In this document: piece by piece, positions 226 to 3,727 of the stretch
Layout of the letters: every line of letters starts with the position of its first letter
Numbering within the stretch: the stretch's first letter is position 1
DNA from: an uncultured cyanobacterium
Lineage (GTDB): Bacteria; Cyanobacteriota; Cyanobacteriia; PCC-6307; Cyanobiaceae
Assembly (NCBI GenBank): GCA_963697335.1
Contig: CAVONQ010000003.1
Coordinates: forward strand, 1-64,000
DNA length: 64,000 nt
Direction: 5' to 3'
The notes under the pieces: model-generated
Database searches by the model: none
What the model saw: the letters and a program-made list of their open reading frames with translations, nothing else
What the model was told of the DNA's origin: nothing
Translations under genes and position numbers: made by a program

Positions 226-791
226 TCAGCAAGAGTTGGCTGCCGGTTGCCGCTGCGCCATGGCCAACAGCGCTGTGATGTCGTGGCAGACAGCCTGCAT
301 CCCTGAACGGATGGACTGAAAGCCGCCCAGTCGCAGCAGGTTGAGAGCGGCTGTCCGCAGCGTCGCCAGCGCTCCGGCGCCGTTGCCCCGATAACGGTGG
401 GCGTCCTCATGCAGCTGGGTGTCACGGATCCAGTGCCAGCTCTCAATGCTCCAGCGGTCGCGCACCAGTTGCAGCAGGGCTTCTGGGGTGGTGCGCAAGC
501 TGGTGAGGAAGAAATGGGTCTGCCGGAAGGTCTTGCCATCGCGGGGCCCGTCGGCGGCCATCTCCACAATCCAACTGGTGCCGCTCCAGGTCTCGCGGAT
601 GTGCTCCGGTGCCTGCTTGGCGCGGAGCGTCCAGGTGATGGCACGGCCGTGGCTGATCTCATGATCCGTTGCCACCAAAGGGATGTGGCGTTTCCCCTGG
701 AACTGGCTGCGGATCTGACGGTGCAGTGTCTTTTGGTTCCTCTTAACGGTCAGGAGGAAGTCGGCCCCCTGCTCGGTGAGCTGTTGAAAAA
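226..791 (-). pseudogene. ISAs1 transposase, C-terminal half
   Basis: FQQLTEQGADFLLTVKRNQ...VRDRWSIESWHWIRDTQLHEDAHR...LATLRTAALNLLR, the ISAs1 W-x-IE..HW..D..EDA motif. Confidence 0.9.
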
Positions 792-1050
792 CATCCCCAG
801 CCCCCAAGTGGCTCCCTTTGGTTCTGTAACACCCACGGCAGATCTACTGCAGAACCCTCAGAATTTAGACTGGGAGATGACATTCCGTTGCCGGAACCTT
901 TTTGGAGGTTTACCCCCGTCGAAAAACATGGCACGGAGCCTGCTGCGGCCTATTGCCTGGTGACAAATAGAAGTTCTCTAGAAACTTTTTTTTGATCCCG
1001 TTTAGGAAACTGCCACTCTTGCGTCAGCTCTGTTTGTCGTCTCCCCTTCC
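792..1050 (+). ncRNA. Putative IS110 bridge/seek RNA
   Basis: Non-coding left end with pairable stems (792-800/870-879; 819-828/848-856; 884-892/930-937; 971-975/984-988) and segments matching the target and donor junctions (see findings). Boundaries are inferred. Confidence 0.65.
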
Positions 1051-1065
1051 CAAGCAAGGAATCCG

Positions 1066-2448
1066 ATGCCACATCCGAAATCTAGAAGGCGGAATGAAGC
1101 ACCTGTAGTTCATCAAAGTGCGGCGGGAATTGACGTTGGCAGCCGGTTTCACGTGGTCGCTATCCCCAGCAGCTGCTCAGGGGAGCCTGTTAAGAAGTTC
1201 TCCAGTTTTACAGGAGATCTAAAGCGATTGCGTGATTGGCTTTGTCAGCACAATATCAAAACCGTAGCAATGGAATCTACTGGAATTTACTGGATACCAA
1301 TTTACGAGATTTTAGAGCAGGCAGGTCTCGAGGTATTCCTTGTCAACGCCCGTCATGTTAAATGTGTCCCGGGGCGTAAAAGTGATATCTCAGACGCTCA
1401 GTGGCTGCAGCAATTGCATAGCTGGGGCCTGCTTAAAGCCAGCTTTCAACCAAGCGAAGGAGTCGCCAACCTCCGATCATTATTGAGGCTACGCGATGGC
1501 CTTGTAAAAAGCAGGGCATCACACCAGCAACATATTCAGAAAGCATTGATGCAGATGAATCTCCAATTGCACCATGTCGTAAATGACGTTATGGGCAAGA
1601 CAGGGCGCCTCATTATCGATGCAATTCTTGCAGGAGAGCGTGATCCAAGCACTCTTGCGGCTTTTCGCGACAGACGCTGCAAGAATCATGAATCAGTGAT
1701 TGCAGAAGCACTGCATGGGCATTTTAGGGAAGATCATCTTTTCGAGCTTGCAGTTGCCGTGCATATGTTTGATGAGTATTCGGCACAGATTGTAAAATGT
1801 GAGACAACAGCGCATGAGCTACTGGACAAGCTTGCACGAGCCAAGGAGGCCTTGCCTGAGCCACTTACTAAAGGCAAGGTCAAGGCAAAAAGGAAGTCAG
1901 AATATTCTTTTGATCCGACTAGTTACATCAATGCTCTTACGGGAGCAGACCTGAGTGGCATCTATGGCCTTGGCCCTGGAAATCTTCTCACCATAGTCAG
2001 CGAGTGTGGCACAGATATGGAGAAATGGCCCACAGCAAAGCATTTCACATCCTGGCTAGGCCTAGCACCACAAAACAAGATTTCAGGCGGACGTGTGCTT
2101 TCCTCGCGCACGCGGCCAGGTTCAAGCCGTGCTGGCTCAGCCTTTTGGATGGCCGCACTAATTGCGTCACGGTCGCAAACTGCAATTGGAGCATTCAGTC
2201 GAAGACTAGCGATTCGACGCGGTAAGCCGAAGGCCCATGTTGCTACAGCAAGAAAGATAGCGGAACTATTCTATAGAGCTGTTCGCTATGGTGGCTGCTA
2301 TGTGGATCCTGGCTCTGCAGACTACGAAGAGAAGCAGAAGCGACTCGCGATTGCCAGCCTCGAAAGGAAGGCTGGCATGTTGGGATTCAGCATTGTAGAA
2401 AGTCAGATATCAAGCCCCAAAGCCCTTGCGATGGAGGGTGTTACTTAG
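1066..2448 (+). CDS. IS110-family DEDD recombinase/transposase (460 aa)
   Basis: GIDVG (D), VAMESTGIYW (E), RKSDISDAQWL (D,D), and C-terminal FTSWLGLAPQNKISGG (catalytic Ser), plus AxVATARK. Confidence 0.95.
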   Translation: MPHPKSRRRNEAPVVHQSAAGIDVGSRFHVVAIPSSCSGEPVKKFSSFTGDLKRLRDWLCQHNIKTVAMESTGIYWIPIYEILEQAGLEVFLVNARHVKCVPGRKSDISDAQWLQQLHSWGLLKASFQPSEGVANLRSLLRLRDGLVKSRASHQQHIQKALMQMNLQLHHVVNDVMGKTGRLIIDAILAGERDPSTLAAFRDRRCKNHESVIAEALHGHFREDHLFELAVAVHMFDEYSAQIVKCETTAHELLDKLARAKEALPEPLTKGKVKAKRKSEYSFDPTSYINALTGADLSGIYGLGPGNLLTIVSECGTDMEKWPTAKHFTSWLGLAPQNKISGGRVLSSRTRPGSSRAGSAFWMAALIASRSQTAIGAFSRRLAIRRGKPKAHVATARKIAELFYRAVRYGGCYVDPGSADYEEKQKRLAIASLERKAGMLGFSIVESQISSPKALAMEGVT

Positions 2449-2449
2449 G

Positions 2450-3060
2450 AAAGGTTTCTGGGTGTGGAGCGCATCTGCCTGGATCAGCACCCCCTCGAGA
2501 TCCAGCTCCCCGAGCAGTTGCCGGAGGACGGCCCGCTCGTGGTTCGCGCCAGTGGCGTAGCAGGCCTGCGAGATCGCCACACCCAAGGCGGCCGAGTACA
2601 GCGTCACCTGGGCAATGAACGCCGAACCACCGCCGGGTGTGGTCTCGATCGAGCCTCGCAGGGTCTTGCCGTCACACACCAGCTGATCGAGATCTGCTGC
2701 ACCACCAGGGATCTGGGCGATCGTCCAGTCACGGATGGCCGCGCACAAGGCCGCCACATCCACCTGCAGGAAGAAGTAGCGGAACGCTGAATCCGATGGG
2801 GGCCGCCGCAGTTCAAGGCCCAGCTGCTGACCCAGCACCGAATGGTGACGGCGAGCAAACCGCTCCAGATCCCGCAAGCTTTCGCAGCCGCTCAGGATGC
2901 CCAGCACCGCCACCAGCAGCAGGTACCAGGCCGGAATGCGCACCCCCCGCCGCATGCGGGCATCCGGTATCACCTTGAGGAAGCTGATCAGATCAAGATC
3001 AGTTGCGGCAGAGGCGGTTTCGGGCACAGGGAAGGGGCGATACCACCAAACAAACCCCAT
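2450..3060 (-). pseudogene. ISAs1 transposase, N-terminal half
   Basis: LISFLKVIPDARMRRGVR...PPSDSAFRYFF...VCDGKTLRGS...HERAVL...IQADALHTQKPF (DDE residues). Start is ATG 3060 or GTG 3027. Confidence 0.9.
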
Positions 3061-3142
3061 GCAGGCAGCCCAGGCCAGAGCACCTGTGACACACTTTGAA
3101 TCAGCCCTGCCCCCACCCCTACCACTGGTTCGGGTTCCAGGT

Positions 3143-3727
3143 TCAGCCGTTGCCCTCACGCCAGCCGTCCATGTGCAGGGCTGCCAGGGCTCCACGGCTC
3201 TCCAGCAGCGCCTCCGCCAACTCCCGCACAGCGCCATGGCCTCCATGACTACGCAGCACCCAATCGGCCCGCTGGCGCAGGCCCAGGGCGGCATCTGCCG
3301 GCGCCACCAACAAGGCGGTGGCCGGCCGAACTGCCAGATCGTTGAGGTCGTCGCCGATGAAGGCCGTGGCCTCCCGGCCGCGGTCCAGCTCAGCCTGCAA
3401 CTCGCGCAGCCCCAGCAACTTGTCGCCCACCTCGGCGCGGCAATGGCGGATCTGCAGATGGCGGGCCCGATGCTCGATGGCACCGCGGCGGCCGCCGCTG
3501 AGCAGAGCCACCTCAATACCGGCGCGCTGCAGCATGCGGATCGCCAGGCCATCGCGCACGTTGAAACGCTTGGTCACTCCACCGCTGGCCTCGTAATAGA
3601 GGCCGCCATCAGTGAGCACCCCGTCCACATCGCACACAAGCAGCTTCACAGCGGCCAGCCTCGGGCCGATTGCCAGACGCCGGATCCTGGAGCGCAGGGC
3701 CTGCAAAGGAGTGGCCATGTGGGTCAA
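3143..3727 (-). CDS. kdsC: Kdo 8-phosphate phosphatase (HAD, YrbI family)
   Basis: [15 protein letters not shown] and GDDLND motifs; adjacent to kdsA. Confidence 0.92.

Follow-up and report, generated by a model that had tools for sequence, protein, structure and literature searches.

A putative bridge RNA upstream of an IS110-family recombinase gene in an uncultured cyanobacterium

The stretch of DNA considered here (the window) comprises positions 1 to 64,000 of contig CAVONQ010000003.1 (assembly GCA_963697335.1), read on the forward strand, and belongs to an uncultured cyanobacterium of the family Cyanobiaceae. At positions 792..2451 it carries an insertion sequence of the IS110 family, including the right copy of its core dinucleotide, which interrupts the transposase gene of another insertion sequence. 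A preliminary description, made from the window alone, had read the non-coding left end of this element as a bridge RNA whose guide segments match the site in which the element sits. The locus raises the question whether short matches of this kind mark a guide RNA or arise by chance in sequence of this composition. Here we present an analysis of the element together with its relatives, from which we conclude, with a probability of about 85%, that 792-2451 is an IS110-family insertion sequence moving by bridge-RNA-guided recombination.

All sequence strings quoted in the preliminary description are present in the window at the positions given there. The segment AACCTTTTT at 895-903 is the reverse complement of the target, and GTCGAAAAACAT at 918-929 agrees with the left junction GTTGAAAAACAT at 783-794 in 11 of 12 positions. 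The stem strands TCCGTTGCC and GGCACGGA lie at 884-892 and 930-937, and TTAGGAAA at 1002-1009 occurs again at 2445-2452. To determine the chance level of such matches, 795-1065 was shuffled 3000 times with dinucleotides preserved. In 214 of the shuffles the empty site was matched exactly in antisense over at least 9 nucleotides (nt), in 236 there was a sense match of at least 8 of 9 positions to GTTGAAAAA, and 18 had both target matches together. The right end was matched as well as observed in 396 shuffles, and all three matches coincided in 1 of 3000. Because of the A/T runs in this region, the matches in the window are by themselves only mildly unusual, and the weight of the evidence comes from the relatives and not from the window sequence alone.

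Relatives were taken from 78 loci on genome contigs and 80 loci on metagenome contigs, among approximately 760 detected (202 + 559 stretches). They share 50-60% protein identity with the element, except for the loci L007, L085 and L086, and stem from many phyla. The motif CCCG-nTTAGGAA is present in exactly one copy, 20-260 nt before the gene, in 151 of 159 loci (window included). Enough upstream sequence was available in 149 loci, which yielded 122 distinct RNA sequences. A tblastn search of plasmids returned 467 records, among them plasmids of Citrobacter, Enterobacter, Klebsiella and E. coli with 52% identity; judged by these matches, the family is not specifically cyanobacterial.

Structure of the predicted RNA and covariation of its guides

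The consensus obtained with RNAalifold from 71 sequences (mutual identity below 85%) consists of an outer helix and two stems, each of which encloses an internal loop and a hairpin; 18 of the 24 pairs show compensatory changes. The ends of the predicted bridge RNA, which measures about 175 nt and lies at 872..1045 on the forward strand like all features of the element, were placed according to the outer helix (872-882 with 1035-1045). The basal stem of loop 1 is formed by 889..893 pairing with 929-933, and can be extended in the window to 884-888/934-937. The inner hairpin of loop 1 (904..917) is closed by GG...CC pairs that are G-C in 65 of 71 and 71 of 71 sequences and that, being invariant, are uninformative for covariation. 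Regarding the stem of loop 2, 936..941 pairs with 1025-1030, and six of six pairs are changed on both sides among the relatives; in the window only 936-939/1027-1030 pair. The inner hairpin of loop 2 (959..999, GGTGAC...GATCC) contains the strand 962-965, which pairs with 993-997, and three of its four pairs covary.

When the RNAalifold helices were counted together with the two closing pairs (1702 cells), 95.2% of the cells were paired, whereas the values were 40-53% when the partners were slid by 1-3 columns. Cells changed on both sides numbered 255, compared with 24-69 after sliding, and none of 500 shuffles reached any of five structure measures. A non-coding RNA with two internal loops in the left end, upstream of the gene, is the arrangement of the IS621/ISEc21 type. 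A terminator-like match at 883-896 was rejected as part of loop 1. In most relatives both inner hairpins begin with GG-UGA..., and the second ends with GAUCC, which places UGA opposite GAU; the first inner hairpin of the window is without UGA. We take the facing of UGA and GAU to have a kink-turn-like look.

The internal loop of loop 1 carries two segments that follow the insertion site. On its 3' side (918..927) stands the left-target guide GTCGAAAAA, followed by C927; the guide sits after CCCG, has the same sense as the left flank plus core, and is closed before the stem by the C, which is invariant and equals the invariant first base of the element. On its 5' side (895..903) stands the right-target guide, antisense to AAAAAGGTT, that is, to two flank A, the core AA and AGGTT at 2452-2456, with 9 of 9 positions matching in the window. 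The left-target guide fits the window's own site at 8 of 9 positions and the site of the relative L086 at 9 of 9. It is common to the window, L085 and L086, whose sites (GTTGAAAAA, GCCGAAAAA and GTCGAAAAA) lie in three diverged copies of one transposase family. The match of 12 nt to the left junction reported earlier is present, but of its CAT only the C is conserved in relatives. The AT after C927 was accordingly dropped as an extension of the guide: the next base equals the second base of the element in 22 of 81 pairs, with 18.4 expected.

The guide together with the C was compared with the left flanks of the 127 loci that had sufficient upstream DNA, of which the best match comprised 10 of 10 positions in 5 loci, 9 in 42, 8 in 64, 7 in 14 and 6 in 2; guides taken from other loci reached at least 9 matched positions in 6.9% of the trials. 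For 113 distinct combinations of guide and upstream sequence, in which 25 different guides occur, the mean match to the own flank was 8.24 of 10, whereas the permuted mean was 7.35 +/- 0.06, and 0 of 1000 permutations were as high. Because most targets of the family are A-runs, only guide classes that contain a base other than A are informative. There are 14 of these, and all 14 fit their own flank at 7-9 of 9 positions (e.g., AGGAAAC against AGCAAAC, TTGTCAAAC, TTTGACAAC and CTAGGAAC). By mutual information, the top four associations are those between columns 920-923 and positions -7 to -4 of the flank. They run in register, in the same sense and with 83-100% identity; this diagonal is not fully independent, since the junction was placed using the guide itself.

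The right junction was anchored independently, via the conserved right end. Among 100 distinct pairs with 60 distinct 5' segments, the exact core plus at least 3 flank bases was matched in 39 of 100 own pairs, compared with 10.4% of cross pairs; the mean was 1.86 versus 1.08, and the own-pair mean was reached in 0 of 5000 permutations. Complementarity links column 898 with right-flank position +2 and column 897 with +3, which gives an antiparallel diagonal. Within the cyanobacterial clade, clear switches of the right guide read GACATCT/AGATGTC, GACAACT/AGTTGTC and GACTTCT/AGAAGTC. The collection of homologues had been proposed earlier as a check; in the collection made here, the counterparts of 918-926 and 895-903 vary in step with the flanks of each copy, and the opposite outcome, unchanged segments at unrelated targets, did not occur. 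Covariation of guides and flanks within an RNA structure that itself covaries supports the bridge-RNA reading.

On the 3' side of loop 2 (1002..1009) the donor guide TTAGG, the core AA and A1009 are identical to 2445-2452, and A1009 equals the first base of the right flank. TTAGGAA is found in the RNA and at the right end family-wide, and in the RNA it follows CCCG. An RNA variant with ATAGG was compared with right ends reading CATAGG, with 3 loci concordant and 2 discordant; no locus with TTAGG in the RNA has this variant right end, and in the enterobacterial relative L165 TCAGG is found in RNA and right end alike. Directly after AGGAA, the RNA base and the first base of the right flank are the same in 68 of 95 pairs (58.6 expected), and an RNA G meets a flank G in 7 of 8. 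In IS621, as described in the sections drawn on here (PMC11208158), the 3' guide is followed by a handshake guide, which pairs with the other DNA once the strands have been exchanged; C927 and A1009 stand at the corresponding positions.

The 5' side of loop 2 (949..958, CCTATTGCCT; family consensus ACTTGnnA[T/G]T) neither matches nor covaries with the start of the left end or any nearby DNA, although a guide for that start would by symmetry be placed here. It consists of a conserved ACTTG...TGG frame with a variable middle that tracks nothing found; when whole loci were searched with 10-mers, 8 of 54 distinct segments were matched, scattered and at no consistent place. A guide for the left-end start was found neither by mutual information over all RNA columns nor in a by-eye table, and sliding 9-mer probes in both senses matched about 2-3 of 9 positions everywhere, as did permuted controls. 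Anchored profiles of the left-end start gave a best value of 4.1 of 10 versus 3.0, in the same sense and 13 nt before the left repeat arm (see below), which was read as shared clade composition and not as pairing. The guides found are three (left target, right target and donor), compared with four in the IS621/ISEc21 type; short or discontinuous pairing might escape a search of this kind.

Boundaries, recombinase and subterminal repeats of the element

The boundaries of the element were placed with the help of empty sites and of the relatives L085 and L086. The host gene encodes an IS4-like transposase on the minus strand and is represented by open reading frames (ORFs) at 226-807 and 2410-3552 with DDE_Tnp_1 and DDE_Tnp_1_assoc; the insertion point is an A-run of this gene. 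Two uninterrupted copies are present in the same genome, on the contigs C9 and C7. The empty site of C9 reads GCTGTTGAAAAAGGTTTC with 5 A, and that of C7 reads GCTGTTGAAAAAAGGTTTC with 6 A and has flanks identical to those of the window. L085 (98% amino acid identity) and L086 (74%) occupy the homologous site in diverged copies of the host-gene family, and both end with CTTAGGAA, then C. On the basis of these empty sites and ends, the right end plus core is read as CTTAGGAA (2444-2451), and the target is read as having had six A. This comparison places the element proper at C792-G2449, with the core AA on both sides (790-791 and 2450-2451) and the right flank beginning at A2452. The target reconstructed in the preliminary description, AAAAAGGTT, lies within the true site, but its boundaries had to be corrected to six A and to an element beginning with C792.

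In the unoccupied copies within this genome, the left target half, GTTGAAA (783..789), runs on into the right flank, and the right half, AGGTTTC (2452..2458), is that of the empty site of C7. In the occupied site the A-run of the left flank comprises 787-791, immediately before C792. The left copy of the core (790..791) is followed by C in 96 of 111 relatives, and the right end TTAGG with the right core copy (2445..2451) encloses the stop codon TAG (2446-2448); TAGGAA is found at the right end in 120 of 123 loci. The AA core proposed earlier is thereby borne out. Since the empty site has 6 A and the occupied one 5 + 3 A, only the 2-nt core is doubled. Terminal inverted repeats and target duplication past the shared core are lacking, and insertion is site-specific, with three members of the lineage at the homologous site, as is characteristic of the IS110 family. 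The left end measures 274 nt, and 3 nt separate the stop codon from the right end.

A junction of the two ends was observed in a relative. The ends of the metagenome contig L103 (1729 nt) overlap by 121 nt; the resulting unit of 1608 nt joins the right end to the left end through one AA. Judged by its sequence, L103 is a circular or tandem assembly of a relative, in the donor form expected for the family.

The length of the A-run in the host gene varies between the copies, with 5 A at C9:84300 and 6 A at C7:135090 (window 783-791 / 2452-2460). To judge from the ORF frames, 4 or 7 A would join the two halves in frame but not 5 or 6, and the IS4-like copies may be frameshifted pseudogenes or users of slippage.

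The sole ORF of the insert, at 1066..2448, encodes a transposase/recombinase of 460 amino acids (aa). It matches the Pfam families DEDD_Tnp_IS110 (PF01548, 3.7e-22) and Transposase_20 (PF02371, 6e-14), in both cases above the cut-offs, and NCBIfam NF033542 ('IS110 family RNA-guided transposase') with 233.7 bits at a cut-off of 140. The residues D23, E70, D107, D110 and S340 show a conservation of at least 97% across 110 relatives, and S340 is aligned with the catalytic serine of IS621, which is the only solved relative and a remote one (E 6e-8). A DEDD (RuvC-like) N-terminal domain and an IS116/IS110/IS902 C-terminal domain with the catalytic serine are thus both present, as in the IS110 family sensu lato. 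To judge from the alignment, the gene is intact and its catalytic residues are kept. The genome yielded 12 phycobilisome-family matches, and the earlier claim of an intact IS110 recombinase in a cyanobacterium holds in both respects.

Compared with the IS4321 protein (IS1111 group), the identity was 23% over 150 aa plus a 52-aa piece, and the IS4321 copies on the same plasmid record remained unmatched at E 1e-3. Regarding the four Streptomyces plasmid matches listed, the identity was 30-34% over 83-95% of the length, and two are annotated as IS110 family transposase; in the Streptomyces relative L176 (32% aa identity) a homologous RNA was not recognisable by eye.

The element further contains a subterminal inverted repeat. 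Its left arm (GTAACACCC, 826..834) is situated 34 nt inward of the left end, and its reverse complement forms the right arm (GGGTGTTAC, 2436..2444), which abuts the donor-guide match TTAGGAA. This relation had been noted earlier and stands as a subterminal repeat of the DNA, but a guide role for it is unsupported. The arms match over at least 7 nt in 58 of 72 distinct relatives, compared with 28% of cross pairs, and in 57 of these 58 the left arm is 28-42 nt from the start of the element. The repeat comprises 9 bp in the window, 7-16 bp among the 58 relatives, and 16 nt in one cyanobacterial clade. It is longer than the 2-3 bp of the IS621/ISEc21 type and falls within the 7-17 bp of subterminal repeats in the IS1111 group, yet its arms are placed asymmetrically.

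In proteobacterial members only, a TAnnnT box just 5' of the outer helix and a TTGGAC-like box 18-19 nt earlier were seen by eye; they are not claimed as a promoter. Again by eye, a -35-like and a -10-like hexamer stand on either side of the left repeat arm of these members, shortly before the RNA. On the tentative three-guide reading given below, recognition of the ends could be coupled to expression of the RNA via the repeat arm among the promoter-like hexamers.

Proposed mechanism and competing explanations

According to the mechanism proposed here, an RNA of about 175 nt (roughly 872-1045) would be made from the left end, with the outer helix enclosing two internal loops. Loop 1 would recognise the target: 918-926, with the same sequence as left flank and core AA, would pair with the bottom strand, and 895-903, antisense to the core plus right flank, would pair with the top strand. 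Loop 2 would recognise the joined ends of the element, with 1002-1008 carrying the sequence of the right end plus core. One handshake base after each 3' guide, C927 and A1009, would match the respective other partner. The comparison of relatives itself shows the structure, covariation of three guides with their flanks, the shared core and, in one relative, an abutted junction of right and left end; from this we infer production of the RNA, its binding by the protein, the order in which the strands are cleaved and a role for the inverted repeats.

Rotation of the DNA by 180 degrees would give the topology of IS621, with the 5' guide on the bottom strand, the 3' guide on the top strand and then the handshake, and a core that reads TT. 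Because the two arrangements are topologically identical after this rotation, the element most likely employs the chemistry of IS621 (DEDD plus serine), with the sites flipped relative to the direction of the gene. The reading of the core as TT agrees with the second T reported as conserved in IS110 cores in the same sections of the IS621 study (PMC11208158).

Several observations weigh against a bridge RNA at this locus. Regarding the RNA as such, the fold of the left end as a single sequence (792-1065) has a z value of -0.26 and is no better than shuffles; Rfam 15 is without a matching family for 500-2800 at E up to 10 (three hits were far below gathering scores); and a sigma-70-like promoter was not found in 760-1100. 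Regarding the target guides, the left one mismatches the occupied site once (C920 versus T785). The right one is irregular: 37 of 100 own pairs are without an exact match past the core by a strict measure, and several clades require a bulge of 1-2 nt in the pairing, as judged by eye. L085 and L086 retain the 5' segment of the window completely or nearly so, and their right flanks begin with CAGGC and CGCTT, without a match past the A-run. The donor guide is nearly invariant, which leaves its covariation thin (3 versus 2 loci), and it could equally be a DNA motif present twice. The fourth guide expected from IS621 was not found, as no segment of the RNA tracks the left-end start. Finally, two unoccupied copies of the target persist in the same genome.

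Among 21 RNA-library runs listed, 15 contain parts of the stretch, in the form of assembled contigs, and the four examined cover parts of 760-1400. A contig of 644 nt from library X1 extends over 814-1400 with 16 differences and represents a relative carrying A896T; a contig of 205 nt from library X4 (760-958) spans the left junction; and a contig from library X6 departs from the window at 792 into other sequence. Being assembled contigs, these matches are uninformative on transcription, ends and strand, and they too count among the points that do not favour the bridge-RNA reading.

The explanation that competes best is the seekRNA mode of the IS1111 type, in which loop 1 alone would seek the target, the protein would read the ends via the repeats, and TTAGGAA in loop 2 would be a second protein-binding DNA motif or of minor importance. 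We consider it improbable, if clearly the most serious competitor. In its favour, the match to the top strand stands on the 5' side of that to the bottom strand, as in the four IS1111 members tested in the part of the seekRNA study used here (PMC11187229); the inverted repeats of 7-16 bp are within the IS1111 range; and both the missing guide for the left-end start and the thin covariation of the donor guide would be expected. Against it stand features of loop 2: TTAGGAA is located on the 3' side of this second internal loop, directly after CCCG, in exact pseudo-symmetry with the left-target guide, the base after TTAGGAA tracks the right flank, and the stem covaries in 6 of 6 pairs, which marks the loop as a conserved RNA feature. 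Moreover, the protein is far from that of IS4321, and the non-coding region lies upstream and not downstream of the gene.

Far less probable is that the left end acts only as a structured 5' leader or promoter controlling the transposase, that the protein picks the target, and that the flank matches are by-products of A/T-rich sequence of low complexity. Each match in the window arises in 7-13% of the shuffles, a point that also weakens the bridge-RNA reading as far as the window alone is concerned; in addition, most targets of the family are A-runs, and the RNA lies directly 5' of the start codon. The guides nevertheless shift with the flanks in the 14 non-poly-A classes and in the right-flank switches, the permutation controls were never reached, and the variable segments are located in the internal loops of a covarying structure and not in its helices. 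The least credible proposal is that the junction copies are functionless DNA relics of tandem or nested insertions or of end duplications, for although 918-929 resembles the whole left junction, 1002-1009 resembles the whole right junction and tandem or circular forms such as L103 exist, the segments hold their structural place across relatives of 50-60% protein identity in many phyla and are updated to the target of each lineage, whereas relics would be expected to decay and not to covary.

Position among known systems, target habit and host

Among the known systems to which the element comes close is, under the bridge-RNA reading, IS621 (Durrant et al. 2024, PMC11208160; Hiraizumi et al. 2024, PMC11208158). 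Both have a left-end RNA of about 175 nt upstream of a gene for a DEDD plus serine recombinase, with the target loop before the donor loop; in both, the two sides of a shared 2-nt core are read by each loop on one strand each, the 3' guide is succeeded by a base of the handshake type, and the donor is a circle with joined ends. In contrast to IS621, the order of the guides is reversed in both loops (5' side top strand, 3' side bottom strand), the core reads AA, or TT on the opposite strand, and not CT, and the protein comprises 460 aa, compared with 326 aa, and is only remotely similar. The repeats of 7-16 bp are asymmetric, compared with 2-3 bp in IS621, whose guide for the left-end start has no counterpart found here.

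ISEc21, as described in the excerpts of PMC11187229, shares the upstream non-coding region, a conserved target inside the transposase gene of another insertion sequence, and matches to both target strands; there the top-strand match is 3' of the bottom-strand match, whereas it is 5' here, and the protein comprises 358 aa. The IS1111 seekRNA elements ISEc11, ISKpn4, ISPa11 and ISPst6 (PMC11187229) and IS4321 resemble the element in having the top-strand match 5' of the bottom-strand match and subterminal repeats of similar length. They differ in an RNA located downstream of the gene, in transposases of 330-350 aa, and in a left repeat arm near the end, compared with 28-42 nt inside the element here (PMC11187229).

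With regard to the groups as such, the order of the guides is that of the IS1111 group and, in both loops, the reverse of that in the IS621/ISEc21 type. A long non-coding region with the RNA downstream of the gene and a transposase of about 330-350 aa related over its full length, as in the IS1111 group, were not found, the comparison having been made with the IS4321 protein and not with IS1111 itself. The inversion of the target guides relative to IS621 noted in the preliminary description is thus real, but it is not in itself a new architecture, since, in the part of their study used here, Siddiquee et al. 2024 report the reversed order for each of the four IS1111-family seekRNAs that they tested (PMC11187229). 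The clade combines features of both described groups, fits neither fully and may lack one guide. A few such exceptions are mentioned by Siddiquee et al. in the same part, without analysis of their RNAs (PMC11187229). The combination of features was not found described in the literature searched, a search that lay outside the figures and supplements of Durrant et al., which may show the guide order of other IS110-group members. Tentatively, and with more doubt than conviction, the clade of long recombinases (440-460 aa) may be viewed as an intermediate between IS110 and IS1111, perhaps with a three-guide bridge RNA, in which the start of the left end would be unread by the RNA save for the handshake C, and this half-site would be defined by the subterminal repeat.

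In most relatives the insertion point is an A6-7 slippery site where orfA of an IS3-family transposase ends, reading CTAAAAAA on one side and GCGGCGGCCTTCTTCGC on the other. Such targets were seen across many of the loci L012-L164 (e.g., L015, L017, L020 and L027) and in L165:1250-1275. Judged by these sites, the clade largely lives by insertion into other insertion sequences, those on enterobacterial plasmids included. In the loci L106/L109 the left-target guide is CTAGGAAC, and the sequence of the left flank, CCCTAGGAA, is similar to the right end of the family itself; the right junction is TAGGAG, not TAGGAA, a possible mismatch of donor and target core.

The E. coli plasmid record NZ_CP047278.1 contains at 169038-175423 (L170/L171) two inverted identical copies of an IS1111-like element with a gene of 317 aa, around a block of TetR, RND-adaptor and ABC transporter genes. 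These elements have a left end of 78 nt, a right end of 265 nt and a 10-bp subterminal repeat, and two copies of IS4321 are located elsewhere on the plasmid. The element (plasmid pEc4097) had been considered as a control for the strand logic and was dropped when it proved IS1111-like. A second, unrelated IS110-family gene is present in the cyanobacterial genome itself at C10:19872-20312 (L167:1447-2529), with an ORF of 360 aa and a PF01548 match of 81.7 bits.

Within the 2.58-Mb host genome the element is present in one copy, and its G+C content is 50.0%, compared with 68.9% for the window. Among 201 genomes of the same family searched, 7 including its own yielded matches; those in the other six have 65-73% identity and cover parts of the element only. 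A close copy was thus not found in the 200 other genomes of the family, and the same genus yielded matches in 0 of 7. Because of the single copy, the contrast in G+C content and the lack of a close copy in these 200 genomes, the element is regarded as a recent foreign arrival. For the host genome it is an ordinary foreign insertion sequence that inactivates another insertion sequence.

The element is a real and apparently intact member of the bridge/seek-RNA systems and belongs to a widespread clade. Bridge and seek RNAs are under development as programmable recombinases, with design rules that rest on IS621/IS622, ISEc21 and a few IS1111 members. The clade departs from these models in its AA/TT core, its long asymmetric subterminal repeats and one donor half-site without a detectable guide. 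It offers about 150 natural, already reprogrammed examples for linking guide polarity, insertion orientation and recognition of the ends, and may bear on the divergence of the IS110 and IS1111 groups.

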